From a virus (Duplodnaviria > Heunggongvirae > Uroviricota > Caudoviricetes), in IMG/VR virus record IMGVR_UViG_2778261499_000007: a stretch of 14,225 bases of DNA, one strand, 5' to 3'. The number at the start of each line of letters is the position of its first letter. Position 1 is the stretch's first letter. Both the position numbers and the translations under genes were made by a program. Of this stretch, positions 1 through 14,225 are shown piece by piece. The notes beneath the pieces were generated by a model that was given only the letters and a program-made list of their open reading frames with translations, had not been told where the DNA came from and did not search any database.

Positions 1-77
1 CCCCTCAGAGTGGATAGCTGCCAGTGTGGCGTAATTCAGGCCGCTATAGTGCTTTCCGTCATCCCAGCCAACCGCTA
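1..77. repeat. Terminal direct repeat, left copy (identical to 14149-14225)
   Basis: Base-by-base comparison: position 1 aligns with 14149 and position 77 with 14225; position 78 onward is unique. Confidence 0.9.
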
Positions 78-156
78 CACCTTCCATCTGTGAGAGCTCT
101 TTGTGCAGCTTATCCATCATGCGCTTGTCTATGGTGCAATGGACTTTCGGACTCAT
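1..156 (-). CDS. Hypothetical protein, N-terminal part (MSPKVHCTIDKRMMDKLHKELSQMEGVAVGWDDGKHYSGLNYATLAAIHSEG...); continues at 14148->13846 if the unit is circular
   Basis: ATG at 156-154 overlaps the TGA stop of the upstream gene (ATGA, 153-156), suggesting translational coupling. The frame stays open to position 1, and the residues encoded by 1-77 are the same as those encoded by 14149-14225. Confidence 0.5.
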   Translation of the reverse strand, partial: MSPKVHCTIDKRMMDKLHKELSQMEGVAVGWDDGKHYSGLNYATLAAIHSEG

Positions 157-956
157 TTGTTGATCTCCGTGATGTCATCGAGCAACATGTTGGCCTTATC
201 GATCATCGTTTCGTGGAACTCATTCGACACAACAGACTTATCACCTGCGGCAATCTTTCCAGCAGCCTCTCCCTGTGCATATTCCCCGCGATGCTTAGCC
301 CTGGTGGATTTCGTAGCAGCGTTGCCAGCGTTGCTACCCTCTTTAGCACTGTTAACAGCACCCTTTTGCTGTGTTTTGTTCACCTTCTTACTGTTAGTGA
401 AAACTCCGGCATTTTCGACCATCTTCACCTTGAAGGTGCGGAATTCTTCAAAAGTGCAATCAATAGTGATGCAGTCGCCAGAGGAAGAGCTACGCTTAAC
501 TTCACATTTCGTCATGATGAAGTTCTCAAGAAGTCCGGCATCTTCACTAACCAGGCTAACCAGCTGGCGCTTGTCTCTCATTTCCATAAGTGCCTGAACA
601 GCGGCAGCAGGGCGCATAGATTCACGGGGATTATCTGGATCAGTGTTCCGGTCGATGTAGTTCTCTTTCCGGATGATATGAGGGGAAGAGGTGATAATAC
701 CCGTAAAGCTGACAGATTTATCTTTAATGACGGCATGGTCTGACATGGTGGTGCCATCCTCGACCGCATAGCTCGATTTCTCGACAGGGAACGAATAGCT
801 GACATCAGAGATTGAGTCAAAGAAGATAGCCACGTTATCGGTATAGTTGAAGCCATCCATTATATTTTTGTTTTGTGAATATCCCCCACACATAACAGTG
901 AATGCAGGAGATCTCGACTCAGCTTGTTTTGCAGCTGTCAGAGCATCACTAGCCAT
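153..956 (-). CDS. Hypothetical protein, about 267 aa, Lys/Ala/Gly/Ser/Asn-rich C-terminal half; possibly virion-associated (function unknown)
   Basis: ORF-track ORF 153..1010 begins at a TTG; an internal ATG at 956-954 is preceded by GGAGG with about 10-nt spacing, so 956 is the likelier start. Protein-like composition; same strand as the capsid genes. Confidence 0.5.
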   Translation of the reverse strand: MASDALTAAKQAESRSPAFTVMCGGYSQNKNIMDGFNYTDNVAIFFDSISDVSYSFPVEKSSYAVEDGTTMSDHAVIKDKSVSFTGIITSSPHIIRKENYIDRNTDPDNPRESMRPAAAVQALMEMRDKRQLVSLVSEDAGLLENFIMTKCEVKRSSSSGDCITIDCTFEEFRTFKVKMVENAGVFTNSKKVNKTQQKGAVNSAKEGSNAGNAATKSTRAKHRGEYAQGEAAGKIAAGDKSVVSNEFHETMIDKANMLLDDITEINK

Positions 957-1150
957 ATTAAACATGCCTCCAAATTGGTCCACTTCATGGATTTGGCTAA
1001 ACTCGTGCAAGTAGCACTCATCCCGAGGGTGTTAAAGCCAAACCTGCAAAAGATGCAGGCAAAATAGAACTTATCGTTGCCCTGCTTAAAATCTGCAGAA
1101 AATACAGGGCAGTTATTCGTTAGAATCGCTTATAGCTCTTCCCGAGAGCG

Positions 1151-1402
1151 TTATTTTGCAAAACGATTATGGGCATTCAGGGCTTTTTTGCGGTCCTGGG
1201 CTTGTTTGCGTGCAATAAAATGTTCGAAAGTCTCGGCCCAGGTGCATTTATTATATTCACGGTATTTATGCATAGCCTGGCGGCTAACGTCATAGCAGGC
1301 GGCAAATGTGGAGATACGCAGGAATTCCGGCAGATCCTCGTCATCGATATGGATAATATCAAAAGGCACGTCATCACGGTCGCCGTATAAAACAATTTTC
1401 AT
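1151..1402 (-). CDS. Small DNA-binding protein (helix-turn-helix-like segment ISTFAACYDVSRQAMHKY), about 83 aa
   Basis: ORF-track ORF 1151..1411 begins at GTG; the ATG at 1402-1400 is preceded by GAGGTG with 6-nt spacing. The overlapping plus-strand ORFs look like shadows. Confidence 0.4.
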   Translation of the reverse strand: MKIVLYGDRDDVPFDIIHIDDEDLPEFLRISTFAACYDVSRQAMHKYREYNKCTWAETFEHFIARKQAQDRKKALNAHNRFAK

Positions 1403-1436
1403 AAAAGACACCTCAAAAACTTAAGACGGGGATTAT

Positions 1437-1476
1437 GAGTCCTTCCAGGACCTTAGCTAAAGCTAAGCCCTTTGGG
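1437..1476. repeat. Left arm of a 40-bp inverted repeat (partner 4297-4336); itself contains the palindrome CTTAGCT..AGCTAAG
   Basis: The reverse complement of 1437-1476 matches 4297-4336 at about 36 of 40 positions by eye. Confidence 0.7.
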
Positions 1477-1478
1477 TC

Positions 1479-1487
1479 TGTGGATAA
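1479..1487. promoter_or_regulatory. Perfect DnaA-box 9-mer (TGTGGATAA, reverse complement TTATCCACA)
   Basis: Exact match to the TTATCCACA consensus; a second perfect copy lies at 3256-3264. Significance uncertain for an isolated 9-mer. Confidence 0.25.
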
Positions 1488-1537
1488 TAAAAAAGGGAAG
1501 AGGGAAAGACCTATCCCCGATCTCTCACCTCTTCCCT
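1487..1537 (-). terminator. Putative intrinsic terminator downstream of the major capsid gene
   Basis: On the minus strand, GGGAAGAGG/CCTCTTCCC stem halves (1495-1503 and 1528-1536) are followed by a T-run (complement of the A-run at 1488-1494), directly after the capsid stop at 1544-1546. Confidence 0.45.
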
Positions 1538-1543
1538 TTGCTT

Positions 1544-2578
1544 TTATTTAGCCTTGGCAGCGGCGGCGGTGTTTTTAACACTCACTTTAACCACAACTTC
1601 AGGCATCATGTTCATGAAAGCATAAGAGGATTCAACGAAGATTTCGCGTTTGCCTCTGGACTCTTCCATATACATGAAAGCTTCACGTGCAGCGCCGTTT
1701 GCCAGCTTCAGGTTGCGAGCGCAAGGGCCGAAAAATTGAGTATAAACGCCCACCATATCGCCTAACGCATGCGGCTGGAACTGTGGGACTAGATAAGCAG
1801 TATTCTCTGGCAGACTATCCATTTGCACCACACGCAGGGCTAAGCCCGGAATGCGGAAGGTCGGGAAGCCCGGCAGAATATCCTCAGGGAACATCAGACC
1901 TTTATCGGTAATATTCTGATTGCCGAACAACAGCACTTTACGGAGCAGTTCATCAGTCTGAATTGCAGCAAAGAGCTCAGCACGGCAGAACAGGGTGAAA
2001 CCACGCAGAGCGCGAACGACACCACGCTGTTTAACCTTGCTCAGTGCAACCAGGTCCTGCAGCTGTTTAAGGATATCTTGAGCTAGATCCACTTCTGAAG
2101 TGGTTTGCTGTGCGCCCAGCAGTTCGCACACATTCAGTTCTTTACCCTTGGTGAGGATAATTTTGTTCTCAAAGAGAGCAAGCTGGCGTGCTTCTTCATG
2201 GGTCTGGCGTAAGCCTTCGCCCAGTTGAATAACACGACGAGCGGTTACAGACTCTAAATTCTCTTCGGAATCTTTGCCAGGAACGCGGATACCCTGCCAG
2301 TCAGAAGGATAAATAGCACTTGATGCGGCAGTGAACGCCATATCACCCGTGCCCGTTTCACGCTCATCTGCGGTAATGGTCGCCATCTGTTCACCGTAGC
2401 GCGGATACTGACCGAAAGCGGTTTGTTTCACCTGCCGAACTTTGTCATATTCAAATTTGAAGGTATTGCACAGAGCAGTAGTGTTGAAGATATCCATTGC
2501 TGAAATAATCTGATTATCCAGCGGGATGTCTTTAATCAGACCACACAGATCGCGAACTTCGAATTCTTTCTTAGCCAT
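1544..2578 (-). CDS. Major capsid protein, lambda gpE-like family (HK97-fold), about 344 aa
   Basis: Size and position match lambda E (341 aa), immediately downstream of a 111-aa D-like gene. C-terminal segment KREIFVESSYAFMNMMPEVVVKVSV resembles the lambda gpE C-terminus as recalled. ATG at 2578 is preceded by AGGAGG with 6-nt spacing; the track start at 2584 is a TTG. Confidence 0.65.
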   Translation of the reverse strand: MAKKEFEVRDLCGLIKDIPLDNQIISAMDIFNTTALCNTFKFEYDKVRQVKQTAFGQYPRYGEQMATITADERETGTGDMAFTAASSAIYPSDWQGIRVPGKDSEENLESVTARRVIQLGEGLRQTHEEARQLALFENKIILTKGKELNVCELLGAQQTTSEVDLAQDILKQLQDLVALSKVKQRGVVRALRGFTLFCRAELFAAIQTDELLRKVLLFGNQNITDKGLMFPEDILPGFPTFRIPGLALRVVQMDSLPENTAYLVPQFQPHALGDMVGVYTQFFGPCARNLKLANGAAREAFMYMEESRGKREIFVESSYAFMNMMPEVVVKVSVKNTAAAAKAK

Positions 2579-2589
2579 TTCCAACCTCC

Positions 2590-2925
2590 TTATTGTGCAA
2601 CACGCAAATCGCCATTGCTGGCAGCAATAACAGCGGCTAAGCCGTCTTTATCCACGTAGGCCGGATTGATATAACAGCCTTTGTTGGCAACAACGATAAA
2701 AGCATCACCAACCTCAGCACGTTCTACAACCAGCAGCGGAGTTTTATCGGTGTGCGTTTCTTTAACGAAGGTCTCAACCTCGCCAGCCTCAGTCACCACA
2801 ACAACAGTGCCAGCCGGAATCTCAGCTTTAACTTTGTTTTTAATTTCAACGTCGCGAATACTAAATTGCTCATCTGCGGCGTATGAAATGATGTGTCCGC
2901 GTGTGCGGATAGTCATATCTCTCAT
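2590..2925 (-). CDS. Head decoration protein (lambda gpD-like / DUF2190-like), 111 aa
   Basis: 111 aa, beta-rich with Val/Ala/Gly runs, directly upstream of the E-like capsid gene (stop at 2590-2592, capsid RBS 6 nt later). AGGTGA RBS before the ATG at 2925. Confidence 0.55.
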   Translation of the reverse strand: MRDMTIRTRGHIISYAADEQFSIRDVEIKNKVKAEIPAGTVVVVTEAGEVETFVKETHTDKTPLLVVERAEVGDAFIVVANKGCYINPAYVDKDGLAAVIAASNGDLRVAQ

Positions 2926-3255
2926 TTGATCACCTGCGATTTAAATTAACTCCCCTCAAAGAGTTCCGGTATAACCTCTCAAACCGCGACAGGCTCGGGC
3001 CGAAAAGTTATGCCGGAAATCTAAAGGGGGATTGATATAAGGAGAGGGAGATAGCCCCGCACCGTAGCCAAGCGGGGGCTATTCCACATGGGGAAACCGA
3101 CAACAGTCGGATGATAGTTCACAGTATGGGTTACGGTTACTAGAGAGCACTATCACGAAAGGCACTCCCCCGAATCAGTTCAGGCTGCGGTCACATCAGC
3201 GGGGAAATACCTTTCGGGATAGCTACCCACACAGAAAACCCGCAAAAGAAAACTG

Positions 3256-3264
3256 TGTGGATAA
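3256..3264. promoter_or_regulatory. Perfect DnaA-box 9-mer (TGTGGATAA)
   Basis: Exact consensus match within the 870-bp ORF-free leader upstream of the capsid operon. Confidence 0.25.
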
Positions 3265-3408
3265 CTAGCCCAATAGGAGAATTAATCGACCACTCAACGA
3301 TGATCAGGGTAGTGTTATTTATAGGGCGGCACCGCTACCTGGTCGCCTTTACTTTGGAGGAAAATATGGCAAATCAAGATCTTCTCAAATGATATTGATT
3401 CCATACTA

Positions 3409-3428
3409 TACTGTATATTATATCAGTA
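3409..3428. promoter_or_regulatory. LexA/SOS-box-like site (taCTGTatattataTCAGta)
   Basis: CTGT-N8-TCAG with an AT-only spacer; matches the E. coli SOS-box consensus CTGT-(AT)4-ACAG except the first base of the right half-site. Confidence 0.35.
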
Positions 3429-3775
3429 TTTACTCACATTGTCAACACCTTGATTATATAAATTCTAATAATTAGCGTAGTAACGGTATTTTCAGACCTC
3501 TATCAATCCCATCAATACGTCACCCCCACCCTTTAGATGCATACATCCGACCTACTTTGTAGGCTTGGCGTACTGCCAAGGTCGCAGCTATGCGACTCCT
3601 ATCTATCACCACTTTATAAAGCTTGATAGATATCTTTTGATCAATATCAATGTTTTCCGGGTATTTACCCGGCTATAGTTCGAATCAAGGAAGGGGAGCA
3701 TTGATAGAGACACCCAAAGGGGTGACTGAAAGTCACCTGGCATAGCCAGTGAAAGCACCCAACCGAACAAACAAA

Positions 3776-3790
3776 TCAACTTCTCGCAAA
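3776..3790 (+). promoter_or_regulatory. Conserved 15-nt motif TCAACTTCTCGCAAA, copy 1, immediately upstream of the RBS of the 3802 peptide
   Basis: Identical 15-mer at 4367-4381 and a near-identical copy (TCAACCTCTCGCGAG) at 13473-13487. Copies 1 and 2 sit at the same distance from an SD and ATG. Confidence 0.5.
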
Positions 3791-3801
3791 AGGTGATAGT
3801 T

Positions 3802-3924
3802 ATGGGTATCAAGAACAGTGCCAGCGCATGGCAAAAGGCCAGGTTTCATCACCCACACATTGTTAAGGCAATTGAGGTGGTTGGAGTTTTAGCCCTGATG
3901 TTAGCTCTGTGTGTGGAGGTGTGA
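3802..3924 (+). CDS. Small peptide, 40 aa, with hydrophobic C-terminal segment (MGIKNSASAWQKARFHHPHIVKAIEVVGVLALMLALCVEV)
   Basis: Below the ORF-track size cutoff; translated by hand. AGGTGA RBS with 5-nt spacing; predicted C-terminal transmembrane segment. Confidence 0.3.
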   Translation: MGIKNSASAWQKARFHHPHIVKAIEVVGVLALMLALCVEV

Positions 3925-3925
3925 G

Positions 3926-4006
3926 ATGGGCAAAGGAGGCAAAGCATTTTTAATAGGTCTGGCTATCCTGGATGTTCTACTAATCATGATTAAGCGGAGT
4001 TTATGA
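3926..4006 (+). CDS. Small hydrophobic peptide, 26 aa (MGKGGKAFLIGLAILDVLLIMIKRSL)
   Basis: Translated by hand. GGAGG at 3915-3919 with 6-nt spacing; ATG begins 1 nt after the preceding TGA; single predicted transmembrane helix. Confidence 0.25.
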   Translation: MGKGGKAFLIGLAILDVLLIMIKRSL

Positions 4007-4025
4007 ACAGCATTGAGAGGAGTTT

Positions 4026-4286
4026 ATGACGGGGGCTAAAGATATCAGGAGACTGAGGGAAGAGCTGATAGCTGAAATTAAAGCTAAGGCAAAGCAAATG
4101 GAGATAGCCGCACAAATGGATGTAGCGGAACAGATGTACAAGATGGTTGAGGAGGGAACGCCACGACAGGTTATCGCTAAAACCTTCGGTGTGGGGATCG
4201 CCACCGTGCACAGAAGGCTGAAAGCCTATGCCGACTACCACAATATCGAGAGAAAGGAGGATGGGAGATTTAAGAAGAATAAATAG
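4026..4286 (+). CDS. Small HTH DNA-binding protein (coiled-coil N-terminus, C-terminal HTH GTPRQVIAKTFGVGIATVHRRLK), 86 aa
   Basis: ORF track; GAGGAG RBS; clear helix-turn-helix pattern; the overlapping minus-strand ORFs are low-complexity shadows. Confidence 0.55.
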   Translation: MTGAKDIRRLREELIAEIKAKAKQMEIAAQMDVAEQMYKMVEEGTPRQVIAKTFGVGIATVHRRLKAYADYHNIERKEDGRFKKNK

Positions 4287-4296
4287 TAGGAACAGG

Positions 4297-4336
4297 CCCG
4301 AAGGGCTTAGCTTTAGCTAAGGTCCTATCAGGACTC
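4297..4336. repeat. Right arm of the 40-bp inverted repeat (partner 1437-1476); hairpin-forming
   Basis: CCCGAAGGGCTTAGCTTTAGCTAAGGTCCT... is the reverse complement of 1437-1476 with about 4 mismatches; lies between the HTH gene stop and the next gene. Confidence 0.7.
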
Positions 4337-4366
4337 CCACACAGTCCAACAGGTTATTAACTAAAT

Positions 4367-4381
4367 TCAACTTCTCGCAAA
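4367..4381 (+). promoter_or_regulatory. Conserved 15-nt motif TCAACTTCTCGCAAA, copy 2, immediately upstream of the RBS of the 4393 gene
   Basis: Exact repeat of 3776-3790, at the same spacing to SD and ATG. Confidence 0.5.
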
Positions 4382-4392
4382 GGGGTACCACT

Positions 4393-5103
4393 ATGTTTAA
4401 AGGTCTTGTTGTTACGCTATTGGCTTGCATTGTATTTGGTCCATGGGTGTTAGTAATTGCTTTACCTATATTGCTGATCATGAGCTTAGGGAATGATATT
4501 AAAAAGCTGCATGCACAATATAAGGAGCATCCTGGAGCAGTCATAACAAGTCTGGTTATAGTCGCGGGGCTTATTGGCTGGGTCTACTTCTCTCTTCCCA
4601 CAGGAAATACAACTGCAAATGTAGAAGAGGCGAACGCACAGCATGAAGAAGTGGTTAACGTCGCCGACCTTACATGGGAGGACAGGGTAAAAGCATATAA
4701 ATATATTTATGGTGTGCTAGATTGCGATCTCTCTAAAGATATAGGATGCACAGATAAATACCAGATTCACGCCTGGCTGTGGAATCATGCAGAAAAAGGT
4801 GCTTGCAACCAGATTAAAGTGGCGGTTAACAGTGGGGCACCTACTGGGAAAAATAAAGATGTTCTGACGGTATGGTGCAAGGATGTAAAAGGCAATGATC
4901 GTTGGCTACAGATGCGCCACATGGACGGTGTAAGCATAGAAACTACACGAACGGCTCGATGGTATAACGGTGAACTCGTTCACGAAGCATGGCAGAATAA
5001 CGCCTGGATCACTGAGGGAACACTCCTGAATGTTGATATGGAAGCATTGAAGATGCTTAATGAGATGTACGGTGAAGCCGTAGAAACCTCTCCGATGAAA
5101 TAA
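4393..5103 (+). CDS. Membrane protein, 236 aa: N-terminal transmembrane helices and a Cys-containing C-terminal domain; function unknown
   Basis: ORF track; two long hydrophobic segments in the first 70 aa; several Cys in the C-terminal domain; followed by a strong terminator. Confidence 0.55.
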   Translation: MFKGLVVTLLACIVFGPWVLVIALPILLIMSLGNDIKKLHAQYKEHPGAVITSLVIVAGLIGWVYFSLPTGNTTANVEEANAQHEEVVNVADLTWEDRVKAYKYIYGVLDCDLSKDIGCTDKYQIHAWLWNHAEKGACNQIKVAVNSGAPTGKNKDVLTVWCKDVKGNDRWLQMRHMDGVSIETTRTARWYNGELVHEAWQNNAWITEGTLLNVDMEALKMLNEMYGEAVETSPMK

Positions 5104-5113
5104 CCACACCTAC

Positions 5114-5143
5114 CAGGGGCCATCACGGCCCCTTTTTATTTAT
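5114..5143 (+). terminator. Rho-independent terminator (AGGGGCC-atcac-GGCCCCT followed by TTTTATTTAT)
   Basis: Perfect 7-bp GC-rich stem, 5-nt loop and T-rich tail starting 11 nt after the stop of the 4393..5103 gene. Confidence 0.7.
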
Positions 5144-5200
5144 CCCCTATTTACACTCCTTTCAGTCCTGATCATCACTCCCTACCCCCTGATCAATTAA

Positions 5201-5250
5201 CCCCTATTTAAGGGGTATTTAATGGGTATTTAATGCCTATTTATTGATTT
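5201..5250. repeat. Phased tandem repeats of TATTTAA at about 11-bp period (4 to 5 copies), plus a second CCCCTATTTA copy at 5144-5153
   Basis: cccctatttaa / ggggtatttaat / gggtatttaat / gcctatttatt / gatttaat; periodicity of about one helical turn. Confidence 0.6.
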
Positions 5251-6486
5251 AATCCGTTTTATGCCACAACCGCCCGGTTGACAGAGTAAGAGAGAGGGTG
5301 TAACCCTTTTTCGTAATACTAATAAAATCAATAGCTTAGCTCAATTGGCCTTTTCTCTGTTTTTGTCAAATTTAACATACCCTAAAAAACTGCAAAATCT
5401 GGCTGCAAGATTATCTGCAGCTGGATTTCTTACACCTCAATTTGTGGTATCACCCTGACTAGTTTGTGCATAAAATGAACAGTTTTTAACATTTCCTCTT
5501 CACCTGGTAACCACACAAAAAGCTAAAAACGAGGCACAGATAATCTTAGAGGCCTGTTTTCTTGTTATCACTCTGGAAACGTCGTAGAAGTGATTTTGAT
5601 GAAAGATGACCTACCCTATTACACCCCCATTTTTTGTTATCACAATTGCATCCTGTGCGGTGTATGGCTGTGTGCTGAAAGCGGTCTTGGGTGTGGGTGT
5701 CAGAAATATCCATTAGCGGTATTAATACCCGTCAGATGTTCGTCTGAGGTGCCAGGCAGGCGCTCCCCCACCTCCCTTTTTTCTTCTAACAATTCTCAAA
5801 TATCACACCACTGCCGACCACGTTACTACTCTGTTAATTCTTAAGCTTTGCTGTATGTTGTGCACATTATTTATTCAGGTGCGTGTACGTAAATTCTGGG
5901 CCTCCTTATCATGATTTTTAAATCAGATTTTGTAGTTCGGTTTCTTAGTGTAGATAAGATCTATTATGTTAAATGCAATTTTCCCAACCCTTCAAATCAA
6001 TGACTTACATGTAAGCATGCACTAACACCCCACACAGCACATTAGACGTATAGATGGCTATATCCCACATTTTTGATTGTTTTGTAGTCATTCCCCTGAT
6101 CATTTAACCAGTATAGTTTGTTCTTTGCAGACCACAAAATCGGAATTTACATCTGATTAACATAATCTGTTAGCATGATCACTATTACCCACACAACAAT
6201 AACCCCATGCAAGACTCTTCAGGCAATTTATCGGCGTGTTGGTGTGAACAGTCTTTCATGTTCTTTATGTTTTCATTGTCCTGTGTGAGGGAAGGATGGA
6301 CTGCCCCAGGGGCCACACTTATGATGCCCGGTCAACATAGCTATTGATAAAATCAACGGGTGTTGATCTGCATATTTCCCACACATGAGAGGAAATCAGA
6401 GCAAAGAGAGAGGAGAGAGGTTTGCTAGTCAAAATAGGTCAATTGACGGCTAATACAGAGTAAAAAATCAGATGCAATCACTCCCC

Positions 6487-6669
6487 ACCTGTTGGGATTT
6501 CCCGCACCTGTATAAGAATACAGTCATACTTTCCCGTTATACGGTCATACACATGATGGAATAACCTGTTGGAATTTCCTACAGGTTTAACCATACACAG
6601 GAGCTAACCTGTTGGAATTTCCTACTACTACCTGTCGGTATTTCCCACAGGTACCTGTTGGAATTTCCC
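6487..6669. repeat. Iteron array (5 copies of ACCTGTTGGAATTTCCY at 6487, 6564, 6607, 6630, 6653), candidate replication origin
   Basis: Near-identical 17-mers; the last three are spaced 23 bp apart; ACCTGT/ACAGGT inverted half-sites; followed by an AT-rich tract (6670-6710) and, 1.3 kb downstream, Rep-like genes. Confidence 0.7.
6508..6523. promoter_or_regulatory. Canonical SOS-box pattern CTGT-N8-ACAG (CTGTATAAGAATACAG) inside the iteron region
   Basis: Exact CTGT and ACAG half-sites with an 8-nt A/T-rich spacer. May partly reflect the iteron ACCTGT/ACAGGT half-sites. Confidence 0.35.
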
Positions 6670-6797
6670 ACACTAATAGATAAAGAGAATAGATCAATAA
6701 AAAGAACTCCCCCTATAATCCCCCAACAAGGGGGGATGGGGAGGGATCAGAGAGTGGGGAAGGTTTTCTAAGGGAAAAGCTTAACCCACAAATGAAA

Positions 6798-6826
6798 GCC
6801 TAAAGAGCATTAGCGACTCTTTAGGC
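6798..6826. other. Perfect 10-bp stem hairpin (GCCTAAAGAG-N9-CTCTTTAGGC), part of a highly structured ORF-free stretch (about 6790-7100)
   Basis: Exact inverted repeat. Nearby are GGTGAC-N21-GTCACC (6840-6872), TTAAGCC-tct-GGCTTAA, GTCCGGA-N20-TCCGGAC and tandem 17-mers at 6826-6843 and 6873-6889. Confidence 0.5.
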
Positions 6827-7231
6827 AATCTGTGTGTGGGGTGACAATGTATTCCATACATGACACGTCACCCAATTGTGTGTGGGGTGCTTACAGCACT
6901 TAAGCCTCTGGCTTAACCCTTCGGGCCTCTGTGTGGGAAGCGTAGTGCGATAGCACGTAGCTTTATAATGTGGAGTCCGGATAAGAGACTTCTGTTTCCA
7001 ATCCGGACCGTTTAAGCGAGGGATTCCGCTCGCCCGTGTATGCACACACGTAATAGGACGCTCAGAAATCGATTTTAAGGCCCAAAACGGGGCCTACAGC
7101 AACCTAAACCATACTCCATAGTGCAATTGCATTGCCTGATGCTTAAATCGCGTTGTAGGGCATCTCATGAGGTTTGAGTTTAACACCCTCCAAAGTTTTA
7201 ACAAAAAGTGCTCTCCCTCCATTGTGGGCCA

Positions 7232-7261
7232 TTGACAATCTTATTGCATAAATGCTATAAG
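7232..7261 (+). promoter_or_regulatory. Sigma70-like promoter (TTGACA-N18-TATAAG)
   Basis: Consensus -35 hexamer with a 5-of-6 match -10 at 18-nt spacing. One of five (A/T)TTGACAAT-type repeats in 7230-7560. Confidence 0.4.
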
Positions 7262-7551
7262 TGATTCTGGTTTTGACACGGTAGGGGCCATTAATAATGT
7301 TTACCCCTTTGCTGTGGACTTGCTTGCACCTATAGCACACCTAAATGATAATAATTCTCATTGACAATTGGTTGACAATATGATAAGATTATAAATAGGG
7401 GGAGAAACAGATCCGGAGGTCAATGTGGAAATTACTGATGCAATAGCGATCATCAACCTGGCTGTACTGTGGTGCGGTGTTGCCTACATAGCCGGAGTAA
7501 CTGCAATCGACAATCTCGAAGAAAAAATGATAGATAAATACAAAAAGATTG

Positions 7552-7580
7552 TTGACAATTTGACGAATGTCTGATAAAAT
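7552..7580 (+). promoter_or_regulatory. Sigma70-like promoter (TTGACA-N17-TAAAAT) about 125 nt upstream of the 7706 gene
   Basis: Consensus -35 and near-consensus -10 at optimal spacing, oriented toward the replication gene block. Confidence 0.45.
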
Positions 7581-7705
7581 ATAAAGCATAGGGTAATTCT
7601 CATCATAGTGAATTTCCTTAAACAAAAATGCGGGGGCTTGTCTTAAGTTCCCGTTTCTTTTTAACCGTATATCGCACAGGCGGTGAGCTGACAGGAGATT
7701 GAATC

Positions 7706-7915: not shown

Positions 7916-7939
7916 TAAATAATCTTGGAGGATCATATT

Positions 7940-8326
7940 ATGGCAAATAACGATGAAAATTTTACTCCCTTTTTTAAACGTTTCATCAAATACACTTTTA
8001 AAAATCCGATTGCAAAAACTGCAACCAATAAAGAAAGATTTCACTTAAATGTGTTGGAGGTAACAATTTATGGTGAAATGGTAAGTTATTCTTTTAAGGA
8101 GGGTGAAGAAATAATTATCTCAGAGCTCTCGACGCAGACATTAGCAGACGATTATGATGTTACAGAGAAAACAGTAAGGTCGGCTATCAAAACATTAGAG
8201 GCTGCAGGTCTGATAAACGTTAAACGAGAACAGGGCAAATCGAATATCTACGAATTGCTAATTACCCCTGATCAGCTTGGCAAGATGTGCGATGAGCAGG
8301 GTATTAGAGAATATTTTATATATTAA
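7940..8326 (+). CDS. Rep-like winged-helix protein, short paralog (about 128 aa); replication-initiator-type HTH
   Basis: Segment ISELSTQTLADDYDVTEKTVRSAIKTLEAAGLINVKREQGKSNIYELL fits the winged-helix pattern of phage/plasmid replication initiators. GGAGG RBS before the ATG at 7940 (track start 7925 is a TTG). Paralogous to the next gene. Confidence 0.5.
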   Translation: MANNDENFTPFFKRFIKYTFKNPIAKTATNKERFHLNVLEVTIYGEMVSYSFKEGEEIIISELSTQTLADDYDVTEKTVRSAIKTLEAAGLINVKREQGKSNIYELLITPDQLGKMCDEQGIREYFIY

Positions 8327-8337
8327 TGGGGGGAACT

Positions 8338-9258
8338 ATGGCAGGAAATAAACTGGGGGCACCTTTTACCCCCTCTTTCGATTTCTTTATTCAGTATGAT
8401 TTTGATAAACCAGTAGCAACAACAATTTCTAATAAAAAGACTGGAACAGTTAAAGAGCGCTTCTATTTAACAGACTTTGAAATGTTGATTTATGGAAAAA
8501 TGGTGGGATTTCATTTTAACGGTGAGGGAATTTATATTTCAGAGCAAAAACTGGCAACTCAACTCAGAAAGGATCGCGGGAAAATAGTAAGCGCTATTAA
8601 ATCTCTGGAAAATGCCGGGCTTATTTCTAAAGATAGCCGGAAAGGCATGTCTAATAATTACAAATTGCTGAAAACCCCTGATCAATTGTTGGATATGTGC
8701 ATTGAGAAGGGCGTAAATATTCCAGAAGGCATCTTAGAGACTTTCGGAAAGACTGCCGCTAAAGTAGAACAGCCTCAGGAAGCCCCAAAACAAGCCACAC
8801 AGCAAGCTAAAAAGGCTAAAGTAGTGCAATTGCCTACCCAAGACACTAAAGCGCCTCAAATTAACGCTGTTAGTGACAAGCCACGCCGGGGCCGTCCTGT
8901 GAAAGATGTCACCGATGGAGGCTGGATCGTCCTGGGTGAGAGTGAGGCTAAAGGCATAATGCGATCACTGTGGGAAAGCAAATACAAAGATTTAAACAAA
9001 CGTCGCCCGATCCTTTTGTCAAAGATTCAGGAGGATTTTTACACCGCAGAAGAGGTAAGCCAACATAAAGGGAAAAGAGAGGGTGAAATCTGGAAACCGG
9101 AAGAATACTGGCATTTAACCAGACCTGTGTTTATTTTTGCAAATAAGCTTATTGGGATGGGATTTGAAATATTGTTGGATAAAACCTGCGGAGATTATCC
9201 CGAAATATTGTGGAGAAATGTTAGAAAAAATAAAAAAGGCATTTTAGAGTTTAAATAA
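8338..9258 (+). CDS. Rep-like replication initiator, long paralog (about 306 aa) with a C-terminal extension
   Basis: N-terminal 120 aa parallels the preceding gene (MA.N...FTP.F...; ...SAIKSLENAGLISKDSRKGMSNNYKLL). The previous stop overlaps an upstream ATG at 8326 (TAATG); 8338 is preceded by a G-rich SD. Iterons lie upstream. Confidence 0.5.
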   Translation: MAGNKLGAPFTPSFDFFIQYDFDKPVATTISNKKTGTVKERFYLTDFEMLIYGKMVGFHFNGEGIYISEQKLATQLRKDRGKIVSAIKSLENAGLISKDSRKGMSNNYKLLKTPDQLLDMCIEKGVNIPEGILETFGKTAAKVEQPQEAPKQATQQAKKAKVVQLPTQDTKAPQINAVSDKPRRGRPVKDVTDGGWIVLGESEAKGIMRSLWESKYKDLNKRRPILLSKIQEDFYTAEEVSQHKGKREGEIWKPEEYWHLTRPVFIFANKLIGMGFEILLDKTCGDYPEILWRNVRKNKKGILEFK

Positions 9259-11190: not shown

Positions 11191-13293
11191 ATGGCAATGA
11201 AGGAAGTAGCCAAGCTAACAAACGTTATTTACTGGGATTCTGATAAATCCAGCTGGCGAAAAGAAGTTAAACGGCTTGAGGATTATAAAAAATCCTGGAA
11301 GAAAGCTACCGACGATATAGCTAAAGCGGATTTTAAATCTAATCAGGCTGTGCTCAGAACACAAAGAACACGCGCTAAGGTGGAAGAGCAGATCGCCAGA
11401 GCACAGAAGAAACAACGTGCTCAGGCTGTCAGCCGTCTGACCGGGGGCAATAATCCGGAGCTCTCCTCTATGCGCAAGTTCTATCAGCAGCAAGCCAGAG
11501 AGGCCGCCAGACAACAAAAACTGTTAGATCGTAGTGTTGGAGATGTTCAGCACAGAAAAGCACGTGTAGGGGCCAACAGTGCACGAATCAGCAGCATGTT
11601 TGATGGCTCCCTGGTTGCTCAGTTCCAATCCAGAATTCAGAGAGTTAATGCTGATTATGCTAAAGGGGCTATTAACCTGCAGACCTATAATCAGAAAATG
11701 GCCCGACTCAGATCTGAAATGAAGATGGCAACAGCAGAGGCCGGAAAATTTCAGAGCAGACTAGACAAAGCTGCGGTAGCAGGATCAAAGCTGCATGACA
11801 ACCTGGGCAAACTCAACTCCACACTAGGCAAGATAGCTATTGGCCTTACTGCCGCTGGCTGGGGTGTTCAGCGTGCTGTTAGTGGTGCTATGGGTAGCCT
11901 TGCAGATCGCAACAGTGCGTATTTCAGCTTAATGGCCCAGAACAAGGATGATAAAGAAAAAACTGATCAGCAGATGGCCTACGTCAAAAGAATCTCTTAT
12001 GACTACGGGATGGATCAGCGTGAGACTGAAGGCGGCTTTATGCGCTTTGCTGCAGCCACACCAAGCATAAAAGAGAAAGATAAGCAGGATCTCTTTGAGG
12101 CTATGGCGATTAAAGGCCGATCAGTGGGTGCTACCGCAGACCAACAGAACAGGGCTATCGTTGCACTAGGACAAATATATAGCAAGGGCGGTCGAGTGTA
12201 TGCGGAAGAGCTTAAGGGCCAACTTTCTGAAGCCCTGGCAGGTTCTCAGGTAGATTTCACTAAGGCCGCTATCGATGCCGGAGTCATCAAGAAAGAGGAA
12301 GAATTTAATAAAGCCCTTGAAGATGGCAAGATCACCATGGACAAGCTTCTTCCTTCTCTGGTGAAAATCTGGGGTGCTGCAAAAGAAACTAAAGCTTTTG
12401 CTGAATCCATGAAACAGCCAGAAGTAGCAATGCAGCGCATGAAAAACAGCTTTAACGAGCTGGCGATTCAGTTTATGGGTGTTGTGGATCCTGCAGATGG
12501 CGTTATTAGCTTATCTGAATCTCTAATCTCCATCTTCGAAGACCTCACCACTGATATGGACGGCAGCGGGAGCGCGGCAAAACAGTTCGGTGAGGCAGTC
12601 GGGGCTGCCATGCGGGAGATCATGTATTGGGTAGGCTTCGCTAAGGGATATATCGAGATTAAGGCTAAAGAGTTCGGCATGACCAGTGAGGAAGTCGGAG
12701 GATGGATCGGCAAGCTGGTTGTTGCAATCGCAGGTCTGAAGATCATCGGCACACTTCTTTCTCCGTTTACCGGACTGATTTCACTTGTCACACAGCTGAT
12801 AGCCTTGTTAGGTAAAATCCCTGGTATGAGCAAGCTTCTGGCTTCTGCCTCAGGTGGAACGGCAACAGGAGCAGCGGTCATCAGTGCAGGATCTAACGCT
12901 GAAAGAAGTTTCATTGATGGCAAGACGCAGGAAATGAGTAAGGAGAACTCAAAACAGGGTGCTTTGTTTGAGCTGGGAAGATTTGTTAGCAATGCTGGCG
13001 CACTATTCACACCTGGCGGTGATACTGGTCCTTTGTTCGATCAGGTCAGAGGCTGGTTTAATAAAGGGCCAACATTGACAGTAGACACTGGCATCAGACC
13101 AACACCAACGGGTGGCATAGCTATCCAGAATGGTGGATATCAACCAGTCCAAGTAAATGTAGCCCCACAAGGTGAGATTTCCGGCAAATGGGAGATAACC
13201 ATCGATGAGGGGGGAATTGCCAGGGTAATTCAGAAGGAAGTCAGCGATCAGTTGGATTGGAAAGCCACGCAGGAATCTAACCAGCTTTTCTAA
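11191..13293 (+). CDS. Tail tape measure protein-like, 700 aa
   Basis: Long coiled-coil N-terminal region; segment ADQQNRAIVALGQIYSKGGRVYAEELKGQLSEALAGSQVDF matches the conserved tape-measure domain pattern (SKG...EEL..QL.E.L.G); long hydrophobic helices at about residues 505-560; Gly-rich C-terminus. Confidence 0.7.
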   Translation: MAMKEVAKLTNVIYWDSDKSSWRKEVKRLEDYKKSWKKATDDIAKADFKSNQAVLRTQRTRAKVEEQIARAQKKQRAQAVSRLTGGNNPELSSMRKFYQQQAREAARQQKLLDRSVGDVQHRKARVGANSARISSMFDGSLVAQFQSRIQRVNADYAKGAINLQTYNQKMARLRSEMKMATAEAGKFQSRLDKAAVAGSKLHDNLGKLNSTLGKIAIGLTAAGWGVQRAVSGAMGSLADRNSAYFSLMAQNKDDKEKTDQQMAYVKRISYDYGMDQRETEGGFMRFAAATPSIKEKDKQDLFEAMAIKGRSVGATADQQNRAIVALGQIYSKGGRVYAEELKGQLSEALAGSQVDFTKAAIDAGVIKKEEEFNKALEDGKITMDKLLPSLVKIWGAAKETKAFAESMKQPEVAMQRMKNSFNELAIQFMGVVDPADGVISLSESLISIFEDLTTDMDGSGSAAKQFGEAVGAAMREIMYWVGFAKGYIEIKAKEFGMTSEEVGGWIGKLVVAIAGLKIIGTLLSPFTGLISLVTQLIALLGKIPGMSKLLASASGGTATGAAVISAGSNAERSFIDGKTQEMSKENSKQGALFELGRFVSNAGALFTPGGDTGPLFDQVRGWFNKGPTLTVDTGIRPTPTGGIAIQNGGYQPVQVNVAPQGEISGKWEITIDEGGIARVIQKEVSDQLDWKATQESNQLF

Positions 13294-13395
13294 TGTCCAC
13301 TCTGTGGATTTGAGTTCTACTCAAACCTGCATAGCAGGCACTGATATTGTGATCAAAATCAATAAGTTAGCCTGACCGGACAAACTCCAGGCAAG

Positions 13396-13426
13396 AAAAA
13401 AGCCCCTAAGTGTTAACAAAGGGGCT
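13396..13426 (-). terminator. Rho-independent terminator for minus-strand transcription (AGCCCCT-N12-AGGGGCT followed by six T on the minus strand)
   Basis: Perfect 7-bp stem at 13401-13407 and 13420-13426; the A-run at 13396-13401 on the plus strand gives the U-tail on the minus strand. Confidence 0.55.
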
Positions 13427-13472
13427 CTTCTCCGGTATCCTTTTGATGCGGGGCAAAACCTGCTAACAAAAA

Positions 13473-13487
13473 TCAACCTCTCGCGAG
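13473..13487 (+). promoter_or_regulatory. Conserved motif copy 3 (TCAACCTCTCGCGAG), in the loop of an 11-bp inverted repeat (13458-13468 and 13493-13503)
   Basis: 13 of 15 identical to the motif at 3776 and 4367; not followed by a credible ORF, which argues for function at the DNA or RNA level. Confidence 0.4.
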
Positions 13488-13845
13488 ACTAATGTTAGCA
13501 GGTTGCCGGAAGGTAAGTCAACTCCGGTCTATAAACCTTAAAGCGACTATAAAATCGCCCCGCCAATTGTGATGATCCGACCTTTGAGGCGGGTCCGGTG
13601 CCCAGGGGGTGCAGTGATGCACAAACCAGGCAACGATAAACAGGCTAACAGTGATAGCGGCGCTCAATCAGCGCACTAAATCCTAACCAGTCCGGGAAAG
13701 AGGCTGGCTCTATCGACCGCTCATGCACGGGACAATGCATACCTGATAAAGGATTCTCACAAGGGACCAATCGCGAGAAAGAAGTGGAAAGGGGCTGATT
13801 TGTGGTGTATCACTACGGCCTCAAAAGACATCCTATTGTCTTTTT

Positions 13846-14225
13846 TCAGCCTCTACCTACATTTGACCAATACTTGATTGCACCGATCAAATCATCATAG
13901 TGGCGCATTGCATCATTGAAGCCTTTATAGCTTGCCCATTGTGGTGAAACCTTGTTATTGCTGAATTGCCCACTAATCAGGATAGTCTCCAAAATGTCGG
14001 CATATCGCTTACCAATACGCTTTCTGACGGCCTCAGAGCTCCCACCCTTTACGATTGCATTAATCAGGGCTTTTGTGTGTCTCAGGCTCTCATAGAGCAT
14101 TGCAGCGTGGGCAGATTCCATAAAGGAGCGCTTAGGCAGATCACCCCACCCCTCAGAGTGGATAGCTGCCAGTGTGGCGTAATTCAGGCCGCTATAGTGC
14201 TTTCCGTCATCCCAGCCAACCGCTA
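13846..14225 (-). CDS. Hypothetical protein, C-terminal part (...MESAHAAMLYESLRHTKALINAIVKGGSSEAVRKRIGKRYADILETILISGQFSNNKVSPQWASYKGFNDAMRHYDDLIGAIKYWSNVGRG); same gene as 1-156 if circular (about 152 aa total)
   Basis: The frame is open from the window end down to the TGA at 13846-13848; the upstream portion is supplied in frame by 156->1 through the 77-bp junction. Confidence 0.5.
   Translation of the reverse strand, partial: AVGWDDGKHYSGLNYATLAAIHSEGWGDLPKRSFMESAHAAMLYESLRHTKALINAIVKGGSSEAVRKRIGKRYADILETILISGQFSNNKVSPQWASYKGFNDAMRHYDDLIGAIKYWSNVGRG
14149..14225. repeat. Terminal direct repeat, right copy (identical to 1-77)
   Basis: Same 77-mer as the window start; consistent with a circular contig written with overlap, or a direct terminal repeat. 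Confidence 0.9.

Follow-up and report, generated by a model that had tools for sequence, protein, structure and literature searches.

A structured RNA unit between convergent operons of a satellite-like Escherichia coli plasmid, with homologues in small Enterobacterales plasmids

A conserved non-coding unit and its fold

The window, meaning the whole 14,225-nt stretch of DNA analysed here (IMG/VR record IMGVR_UViG_2778261499_000007), was a circular Escherichia coli plasmid of 14,148 bp with a terminal overlap of 77 bp (1–77 = 14149–14225). It belongs to a small group of non-mobilizable E. coli plasmids of 13–14 kb. Our subject is the gap at 13294–13845, where two operons converge, and the structured RNA unit found in it. 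The leftward operon encoded a 111-aa protein, a major-capsid-like protein, an 86-aa protein, a Dit-like tail protein and a 152-aa protein. The capsid-like and Dit-like genes were located at 153–2925 (minus strand), and the gene of the 152-aa protein spanned the junction of the circle (13846–14148 continued at 1–156, minus strand). From the rightward operon we recognized two helix-turn-helix (HTH) proteins resembling replication initiators, several small proteins and a 700-aa tape-measure protein (11191–13293, plus strand), whose open reading frame (ORF) stopped at 13293.

As the initial annotation had proposed, there was no credible ORF in the gap: all were of 51 aa or less and none was conserved in relatives. 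The indels between homologues were not multiples of three, and 14- and 2-nt indels were found inside the core. A coding core was considered and rejected, its frames differing between families, a stop preceding GCCTGTTTATC in the window and the indels being out of frame. No tRNA or tmRNA was detected by scanning, and the Rfam scans of the window and the homologous plasmids gave only a sub-threshold ctRNA match, which was the terminator itself. A literature search for the invariant blocks returned nothing but matches to 16S primers.

In an alignment of nine plasmid copies, positions 13345–13835 were nearly invariant (~99% identity). Among five whole plasmids, the identity of 13401–13800 was 0.988–0.992, equal to that of the best-conserved coding parts. 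The few substitutions in the gap were either in loops or compensated each other. Outside the conserved unit lay a variable segment with small hairpins next to the tape-measure gene (13294–13344, plus strand), deleted in four of the nine copies and replaced by other hairpins in pMB4926_4.

The gap holds one structured RNA of ~455 nt on the minus strand (13845 to 13391), made up of a structured 5' domain, a pair of 3' stem-loops and a terminator. The four hairpin features listed in the initial annotation were all present, displaced by at most 1–2 nt. They had been described as separate items, and proved to be parts of one homologous unit.

The first of them, the A/U-flanked hairpin at the gene stop, is the 5' hairpin P0 (AAAAGACA/UGUCUUUU; 13823–13844, minus strand), recognized in the sequence and in the centroid fold. 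It directly follows the stop codon of the 152-aa gene, between A and U runs, and its arms in window letters are AAAAGACA (13823–13830) and TGTCTTTT (13837–13844). Compensatory variants of P0 were found in two homologous sequences, GACC/GGUC in L023 and GGCA/UGCC in the Pantoea copy L058. Two long-range helices follow. In H1, the 5' strand UUUGAGGC (13818–13825) pairs with GCCUCAAA (13583–13590), which is within the loop of the hairpin P5 (GACC/GGUC; 13579–13595). H1 was supported by RNAalifold, by the pair count described below and by the minimum free energy (MFE) fold; it was 95.8% paired, with three pairs showing double changes and a G-C to U-A split of 6:5. The stem of P5 also covaried (GGGC/GCCC, GGAC/GUCC, UCCC/GGGA). 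In H2, supported by the pair count and the MFE fold, AGUGAUA (13808–13814) pairs with UAUCACU (13650–13656), and five of the eight pairs had changes on both sides. From ten sequences of four sequence types, RNAalifold gave UUUGAKGC with GCMUCAAA for H1 and (U)GAUGGU with ACCAUC(G) for H2.

Between the strands of these helices, the block UUAUCAGGUA (13740–13749) was single-stranded and unchanged in all 14-kb relatives. It was followed by the hairpin P4 with the conserved loop CUCUUUCCCGG (13686–13708) and by a second invariant single-stranded block, GCCUGUUUAUC (13635–13645). The P4 stems covaried (CCAG/CUGG, UUAU/AUAA, CUAU/AUAG, UUAAC/GUUAA), and the only two substitutions of pMB4926_4 in P4 compensated each other, turning a C-G pair into A-U. 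The lineage-variable hairpin V2 (13598–13634) holds at its tip the palindrome GTGCA-GTGA-TGCAC (GTGCAGTGATGCAC; 13609–13622), which the initial annotation had placed one base away. V2 was missing in L009 and L023, and other short hairpins were found in its place in L022 and L026.

The 3' part begins with the hairpin SLw (CCGGA/UCCGG; 13506–13527), whose loop contains a -35-like TTGACT (13516–13521); at this position the small-plasmid alignment also predicts a hairpin with covarying stem pairs. The next stem-loop, SLx (13457–13504), has a 12-bp stem and a 24-nt loop, and a -10-like TAACAT (13492–13497) in its 5' arm. Its inverted repeat, AACCTGCTAACA (13457–13468) and TGTTAGCAGGTT (13493–13504), encloses the third copy of a repeated motif (13470–13490), as previously noted, and its loop bears the complement of this copy, the seed CUCGCGAGAGGUUGAUUU (13470–13487). 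The SLx stem was maintained with altered sequences in L009, L075, L040, L070, L048, L077 and L078, with U.G wobbles on the minus strand. The unit ends with the minus-strand intrinsic terminator of the initial annotation (AGCCCCU/AGGGGCU plus U6; 13395–13426), with its stem at 13401–13407/13420–13426 and its U-run at 13395–13400. Terminators with different stems were retained in L009 (AGCCCCC/GGGGGCU), the small plasmids and the Xenorhabdus plasmids. Together, SLx and the terminator (13388–13512) folded with z = -6.6.

For the formal pair count, we joined the alignable flanks of twelve sequences, including the chromosomal Pantoea copy, and left out P0 and P5, which had 1-nt register shifts in the alignment. 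Of all cells, 92.2% were paired, compared with 82.5% in shuffles, and both sides had changed in 8 of 16 pairs; none of 500 shuffles reached the observed values. Sliding the partners by 1–3 columns lowered the pairing to 52% or less. The single-sequence MFE and centroid folds of the window recovered P0, H1 and H2 without an alignment. P4, P5, SLw, SLx and the terminator retained their pairing while their sequence changed. G.U pairs were frequent and arose only in the minus-strand reading of the window, which settles the strand of the RNA.

These results leave little room for two plain back-to-back terminators with chance hairpins between them. The genes do converge, the minus-strand terminator is clear, and the variable hairpins at 13294–13344 look like terminator material of the tape-measure gene. 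Such an arrangement would not explain ~490 near-invariant bp, homology across genera and plasmid types, or covarying long-range helices. Conservation and covariation already refute it, unless the alignments are artefactual, and we consider it hardly credible.

Homologues in distant relatives and in small plasmids without a Rep gene

Searches with the neighbouring proteins gave one relative of the 152-aa protein, at 50% identity, and many of the Dit-like protein, at 41–66% identity, on contigs of 13–20 kb. A locus search guided by the 152-aa protein was negative for GTDB genomes and IMG/VR; metagenomes yielded close relatives only. Every fetched contig reaching beyond the Dit or the 152-aa gene had a long gene-poor gap before a convergent tape-measure gene. 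The blocks in these gaps were still 72% identical as DNA, though the neighbouring proteins were only ~50% identical, and the anchors AGACAATAG, TTATCAGGTA and GCCTGTTTATC were in the same order in all these relatives.

In two of the contigs (L025 and L033) the 5' domain was inverted relative to its neighbours, together with a divergent gene for a 49-aa protein; in L022 it had the usual orientation. The element is therefore self-contained and not a mere tail of the upstream operon. The 49-aa protein is basic, and its gene, with an extended -10 promoter, diverges from the 5' end of the element (L022 9075–9225, minus; L025 4902–5051, plus; L033 10805–10954). A partial copy, from P0 to P5 and without the 3' stem-loops, was found on the chromosome of Pantoea anthophila (L058 4290–4560), and it added compensatory changes. 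This copy was located ~220 nt from a tRNA gene (4778–4859), at the edge of an apparent island of hypothetical genes.

Searching one genome per species with an exact pattern of the two invariant blocks gave 41 places, more than half of them true homologues. These included 2.7-kb qnrD plasmids from Proteus and Providencia, small Xenorhabdus plasmids, small Acinetobacter contigs and, on chromosomes of Providencia, Moellerella and Pantoea, incomplete copies. Matches in Flavobacterium, Spirochaetes and similar genomes were discarded as chance hits in coding sequence. Several of the chromosomal copies were truncated, as expected if an intact copy is an active origin. With the module of a qnrD plasmid as query, we found 287 plasmids in PLSDB, including plasmids of 1.7–3.5 kb from Salmonella, Klebsiella, E. 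coli and Enterobacter, which hold the complete module.

The homology was detected from both sides. A hidden Markov model (HMM) built from nine small-plasmid modules alone, of qnrD/Col3M, Xenorhabdus and 1.7–2 kb Salmonella and Klebsiella plasmids, matched the window from 13769 to 13396 (minus strand, E = 7.5e-10), and the reciprocal HMM from the 14-kb family matched the small plasmids with E values of 1e-5 to 1e-8. For the plasmids without a Rep gene, both the 2,683-bp qnrD plasmids (pDIJ09-518a, p3M-2A, pVERM), of the Col3M type, and the untyped plasmids of 1.7–5 kb (compared from Salmonella, Klebsiella, E. coli and Xenorhabdus), the homology extended over ~375 nt. The parts had the same order as in the window, namely UUAUCAGGU(A/G), P4, GCCUGUUUAUC, P5, the UUAUAGUCG block, SLw, SLx and the terminator, and the G.U pairs had the same orientation. 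Between these plasmids and the window the stems covaried, and the loops and single-stranded blocks were conserved. Besides the 14-kb family, only the 1.7–2.0 kb plasmids had a recognisable P4; another hairpin takes its place in the qnrD and Xenorhabdus forms. The 5' part differed as well: the small plasmids have CCUAAUGCCCC...AGCGAC and other long-range pairings, where the window has P0 and H1/H2. Their seed and V1 (the proposed pairing partner of the seed, see below) also have other sequences, and in the window the unit resides in a 14-kb plasmid that has iterons, Rep-like proteins and phage structural genes.

In several of these plasmids the module has little company. It was the sole sequence common to a qnrD plasmid (L075) and a Xenorhabdus plasmid (L048), the latter encoding Hcp, DUF4225 and CcdB proteins and no initiator. 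Plasmids of 1,718 and 2,044 bp consisted of the module and one or two small ORFs. Contig names of module-bearing host plasmids report high read coverages, of 1095 and 6450, a likeness to ColE1-family plasmids. PLSDB typed the qnrD plasmid as Col3M. Such plasmids were described as having no recognisable replicase and as probably replicating by an uncharacterised method, with replicase and mode of replication unknown to the authors (PMC3913671, PMC3542290), and a study dissecting the plasmid backbone did not mention origin, replicon or copy number (PMC8789287).

This distribution bears on the role suggested by the initial annotation, a cos, pac or attachment sequence or a small RNA. The small-RNA part was supported by the strand-specific covarying helices, the conserved terminator and a seed complementary to two mRNA leaders. 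The part on packaging or attachment found no support. In that explanation, the gap would be a cis-acting DNA site for a helper phage, and its hairpins protein-binding inverted repeats. The plasmid looks like a phage satellite maintained as a plasmid, given its capsid-like, Dit-like and tape-measure genes and their phage-like kin, and a satellite-like element must somehow be packaged. A homologue of its Dit-like protein (~50% identity) is encoded behind the tape-measure gene of the 137.6-kb E. coli phage-like plasmid pRHB39-C03_2 (L027, CP057073.1), a candidate helper type; the tape-measure protein of the 14-kb plasmid has only distant kinship, to counterparts in rV5-like and FelixO1-like myoviruses. 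The gap is also the largest strongly conserved non-coding stretch beside the structural genes. None of 50,697 phage records was similar to it, pattern scans of the IMG/VR viral contigs gave nothing or chance 16-mers, and there was no match in a fetched 18.6-kb stretch of the 137-kb plasmid. We found no portal, terminase or integrase among the plasmid genes. Homologues reside in tiny plasmids of 1.7–5 kb without phage genes, and the inversion of the 5' domain with the 49-aa gene also speaks against such a site. Stems that vary and stay paired, with strand-specific G.U pairs, fit an RNA and not a sequence-specific protein site. Overall, a packaging or attachment function is quite improbable.

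Covariation alone cannot separate RNA from single-stranded DNA, and the helices could in principle form in the latter, as a primosome assembly or single-strand initiation signal for lagging-strand priming of an iteron/Rep replicon. Such signals are structured elements of 100–300 nt found in many plasmids, and the iteron/Rep-like system of the 14-kb plasmid would benefit from one. The many G.U (G.T) pairs in the helices, the canonical transcription terminator at the end and the promoter-like hexamers do not fit this explanation. In L025 and L033 the inversion would put the 5' domain on the wrong template strand, and the Rep-less plasmids have no other replicon that the signal could serve. We thus rate this explanation as improbable.

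Loop pairing, complementary leaders and a potential RNA replicon

The loop of SLx is complementary to a site in the 5' domain, V1 (UUUCUCGCGA; 13771–13780, minus strand). V1 duplexes were searched per family by comparing the sequence after the -10-like hexamer with the upstream region. In the 14-kb family the best duplex ended 19–20 nt upstream of UUAUCAGG, and in five of the seven small plasmids tested it ended 27–28 nt before it. The paired sequences differed by family, the seed/V1 combinations being UCGCGAGAGG/UUUCUCGCGA, ACGCGAGAGG/UUUCUCGCGU, UCUGCUAAG/UUUAGCAGA, UGGAUUGCGA/UCGCAAUCCA, UGAUUGC/GCAAUCA and AGGAUU/AAUCCU, and L029 had a compensatory change from A-U to U-A. We base the V1–SLx pairing on this fixed position and covariation, and not on duplex energies.

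The same seed has potential targets elsewhere in the plasmid. The 12-mer TCAACYTCTCGC occurred three times, with 0.10 occurrences expected. Motif copy 1 (3773–3787, plus strand) ends 14 nt before the ATG at 3802, the start of a 40-aa peptide whose C-terminus is hydrophobic. It is complementary to the seed over 15 nt, including one G.U, and was the top trans target plasmid-wide. Motif copy 2 (4364–4378, plus strand) ends 14 nt before the ATG at 4393 of a variable cargo gene, and its leader was conserved while the gene downstream varied between plasmids. Both motifs adjoin a Shine-Dalgarno sequence, the seed duplexes are of 12–15 nt, and in a seed scan of the whole plasmid the two leaders ranked first among the trans targets. 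Only this seed-restricted scan was useful; duplexfold with the whole short RNA and the leaders was uninformative (z about -1.2). In L022, where the short RNA has another scaffold, its 5' end matches the leaders as a perfect complement over 12 nt.

The 40-aa ORF (3802–3924, plus strand) is in tandem with one of 26 aa (3927–4007), both with hydrophobic stretches, before an 86-aa HTH gene (4026–4286). They may encode small membrane peptides, or products like type I toxins, controlled by the seed. The cargo slot (4393–5103, plus strand) varies more than any other part of the plasmid family (identity 0.25–0.45), and here encodes a 236-aa membrane protein without a Pfam or PHROG match.

The hexamers TTGACT-18-TAACAT, with a spacing of 16–18 nt, were conserved in representatives of every SLx-bearing family. 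They may also act as the promoter of a 95-nt RNA. This candidate short RNA folded with z = -3.1 and ends in the U-tailed terminator. On the plus strand around the two invariant blocks we saw by eye no convincing antisense -35/-10 pair, no systematic scan having been made; a resemblance to the bla P3 promoter of Tn3 on that strand was by eye only and was dropped.

One explanation of these complementarities is a regulatory RNA locus unrelated to replication. The long structured RNA would then be the 3' untranslated region of the capsid-Dit-152-aa operon, a stability or processing platform delivering a trans-acting small RNA that represses the 40-aa peptide and the cargo, e.g., as a type I antitoxin-like RNA or as an immunity RNA like P4 CI or P1 c4. 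In agreement with it, the seed matches best, within the plasmid, the two leaders, each of which stops 14 nt short of a start codon; the peptide encoded behind the first leader is small and has a hydrophobic tail; and L022 keeps the seed within an unrelated scaffold. No strong terminator separates the unit from the stop codon of the 152-aa gene, where it begins, and the short RNA has its fold score and U-tailed terminator. The small plasmids, L023 and L029 have no such leader targets, yet their structure is conserved. There was no Rfam match to C4, Sok or other antitoxin RNAs and no conserved toxin ORF in the module. A purely regulatory locus leaves unexplained why the module is the sole element common to Rep-less plasmids, and we regard it as unlikely.

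We consider it about an even bet that the module is an uncharacterised, protein-independent and host-dependent RNA replicon with copy control, which also regulates genes in trans. Any plasmid requires a replicon. Since the Rep-less plasmids need one and the module is the only element they share, it is most economically read as that replicon; by this elimination we infer the replication function. In the unit, a 5' domain of P0 and a multi-branch fold closed by H1 and H2, with P4, P5 and the invariant blocks, precedes a 3' domain of SLw, SLx and the intrinsic terminator, and the SLx loop pairs with V1. In the proposed mechanism, the RNA would drive the origin, in principle like ColE1 RNAII, with unrelated sequence. 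The V1–SLx interaction, as the candidate control step, would decide whether the RNA takes the active fold. A short RNA may arise from TTGACT-18-TAACAT; with the seed at its 5' end, it could compete for V1, and this competition would feed back on the copy number. The same seed would repress in trans the leaders of the 40-aa membrane peptide and the variable cargo gene. The sequences themselves show the conservation, the homology, the helices, the terminator and the complementarities; both copy control and this trans regulation are, like replication, conjectural.

Several points weigh against a replicon. The 14-kb plasmid already has five iterons and two initiator-like HTH proteins, and does not require another replicon; as in P1 or N15, the module could here be an additional one, or it could serve some other purpose. 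A strong intrinsic terminator is an odd end for a primer, and no site of RNA-to-DNA transition can be named. Partial copies are found on chromosomes of Providencia (L043, L053) and Pantoea (L058). The lineage of L022, L025 and L033 lacks SLx, and H1 and H2 could not be traced with confidence in the small-plasmid group. The fold of the 5' domain alone was modest (z = -1.65), and the V1–seed duplex energies were clearly better than those of shuffles in only four of 13 sequences. One hexamer is within the SLw loop and the other within the SLx 5' arm, and both could be RNA motifs rather than a promoter. The comparison with ColE1 adds further points: its origin (NC_001371) gave no significant blastn or nhmmer match, nor any with the small-plasmid HMM; RNAI (RF00106) scored 73.8 bits in ColE1 and was absent from the window, the qnrD plasmid and the tiny plasmids; and no ColE1-like antisense RNA gene was evident. 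Finally, the replication role is read from comparison of sequences.

The likeness to ColE1 RNAII/RNAI is thus one of principle. ColE1 and the small-plasmid homologues have no plasmid initiator protein, the window plasmid carrying iterons and Rep-like HTH proteins. Both systems have a structured RNA of ~500 nt, and the control proposed here resembles that by RNAI, with a short RNA of ~100 nt having stem-loops and a U-tailed terminator. Unlike in ColE1, the candidate control RNA shares the strand of the long RNA and lies downstream of it, not antisense to its 5' end, and the long RNA ends in an intrinsic terminator without a recognisable origin transition site. A kinship with ColE1 suspected by eye (CAGGTAT..AGCGG..GCCTGGTATCTTTATAGTC, AAAAACGCC) was rejected by blastn and nhmmer. 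Two further resemblances, both without statistical support, were seen at the edges of homologous modules. In the Xenorhabdus plasmids L048, L052 and L059, AAAAAAGATC..GAGATCCTTTTT, ~100 nt upstream of the module, resembles the GGATCTTCTTGAGATCC hairpin, which overlaps the ColE1 RNAII promoter. In the qnrD plasmid L075, AAAAAACGCC at the 5' edge of the module is like the ColE1 origin transition.

Other known systems share single traits with the module. In IncB/IncI-alpha repZ, where a pseudoknot is blocked by Inc RNA, and in R1 CopA/CopT, a hairpin loop also pairs with a distant single-stranded site and a short RNA can compete. Both control the translation of a Rep protein through a true antisense RNA, whereas the small-plasmid homologues have no Rep gene and the competitor here would be a sense-strand copy of the loop. 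P4 CI RNA (seqA/seqB/seqC) and P1/P7 c4 likewise belong to satellite- or phage-plasmid-like elements, in which one short RNA segment is complementary to two repeated leader targets in another transcription unit. The window had no match to the Rfam C4 family. In contrast to P4 CI and c4, the targets here are on a different transcript ~4.4 kb away, at translation-initiation regions, and the RNA is embedded in a module common to non-phage plasmids. As for type I toxin–antitoxin systems of the hok/sok kind, there was no conserved small toxin ORF inside the structured RNA.

A more specific version of the replicon reading is possible, and we put it forward tentatively. An undescribed structured RNA of 450–520 nt would initiate a distinct and widespread protein-independent replicon of Enterobacterales, that of the qnrD/Col3M resistance plasmids included; copy number would depend on the pairing of a loop with its site, which a short sense RNA could mimic; and in satellite-like plasmids the loop would have been recruited to repress translation of a small membrane peptide and the exchangeable cargo gene. 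The Col3M marker and the plasmids themselves were already known. The accessible literature seems to contain neither the identity of the shared module, with its boundaries, strand and fold, nor its presence in satellite-like plasmids, nor the complementarity to cargo leaders.

Hundreds of small plasmids, including those with the quinolone-resistance gene qnrD, are catalogued merely as Col3M or untyped. Their common module can now be named, with a strand, boundaries and a covariation-backed fold. It is also found in a 14-kb plasmid with capsid, Dit and tape-measure genes, which connects small-plasmid biology to that of phage satellite-like elements. If the reading is true, a replicon RNA would have a route to regulate cargo in trans, coupling the expression of cargo to copy number. 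Should the replication role fail, the module would still be a new, widespread structured RNA family of Enterobacterales.

Other features of the 14-kb plasmid

The iterons are five 21-nt direct repeats at 6485–6671, four of them spaced 23 or 43 nt, with the consensus (T/C)ACCTGTTGGAATTTCC. They are located upstream of the two initiator-like HTH proteins (7925–8326 and 8326–9258), which are paralogous and whose genes share a 68-nt DNA repeat.

Two more long stretches, 2926–3800 and 5104–7700, had no convincing ORFs, and positions 3100–3300 and 5400–6300 were 95–98% conserved among the plasmids. A perfect consensus promoter (TTGACA-17-TATAAT with TG), running from 3445 to 3417, was directed into the capsid operon.

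A 45-nt element of three short hairpins was found as an inverted pair (1437–1481 and 4292–4336, 89% complementary), with a partial third copy at 6911–6928. It reads alike in minus- and plus-strand transcripts and sits at gene ends, and it may be a terminator or processing signal.

One plasmid of 39,610 bp (L002, NZ_CP043822.1) was a head-to-tail trimer of a 13.5-kb plasmid; in one of its repeats, there were frameshifts and genes were truncated. The record represents either a true multimer or an artefact of assembly.

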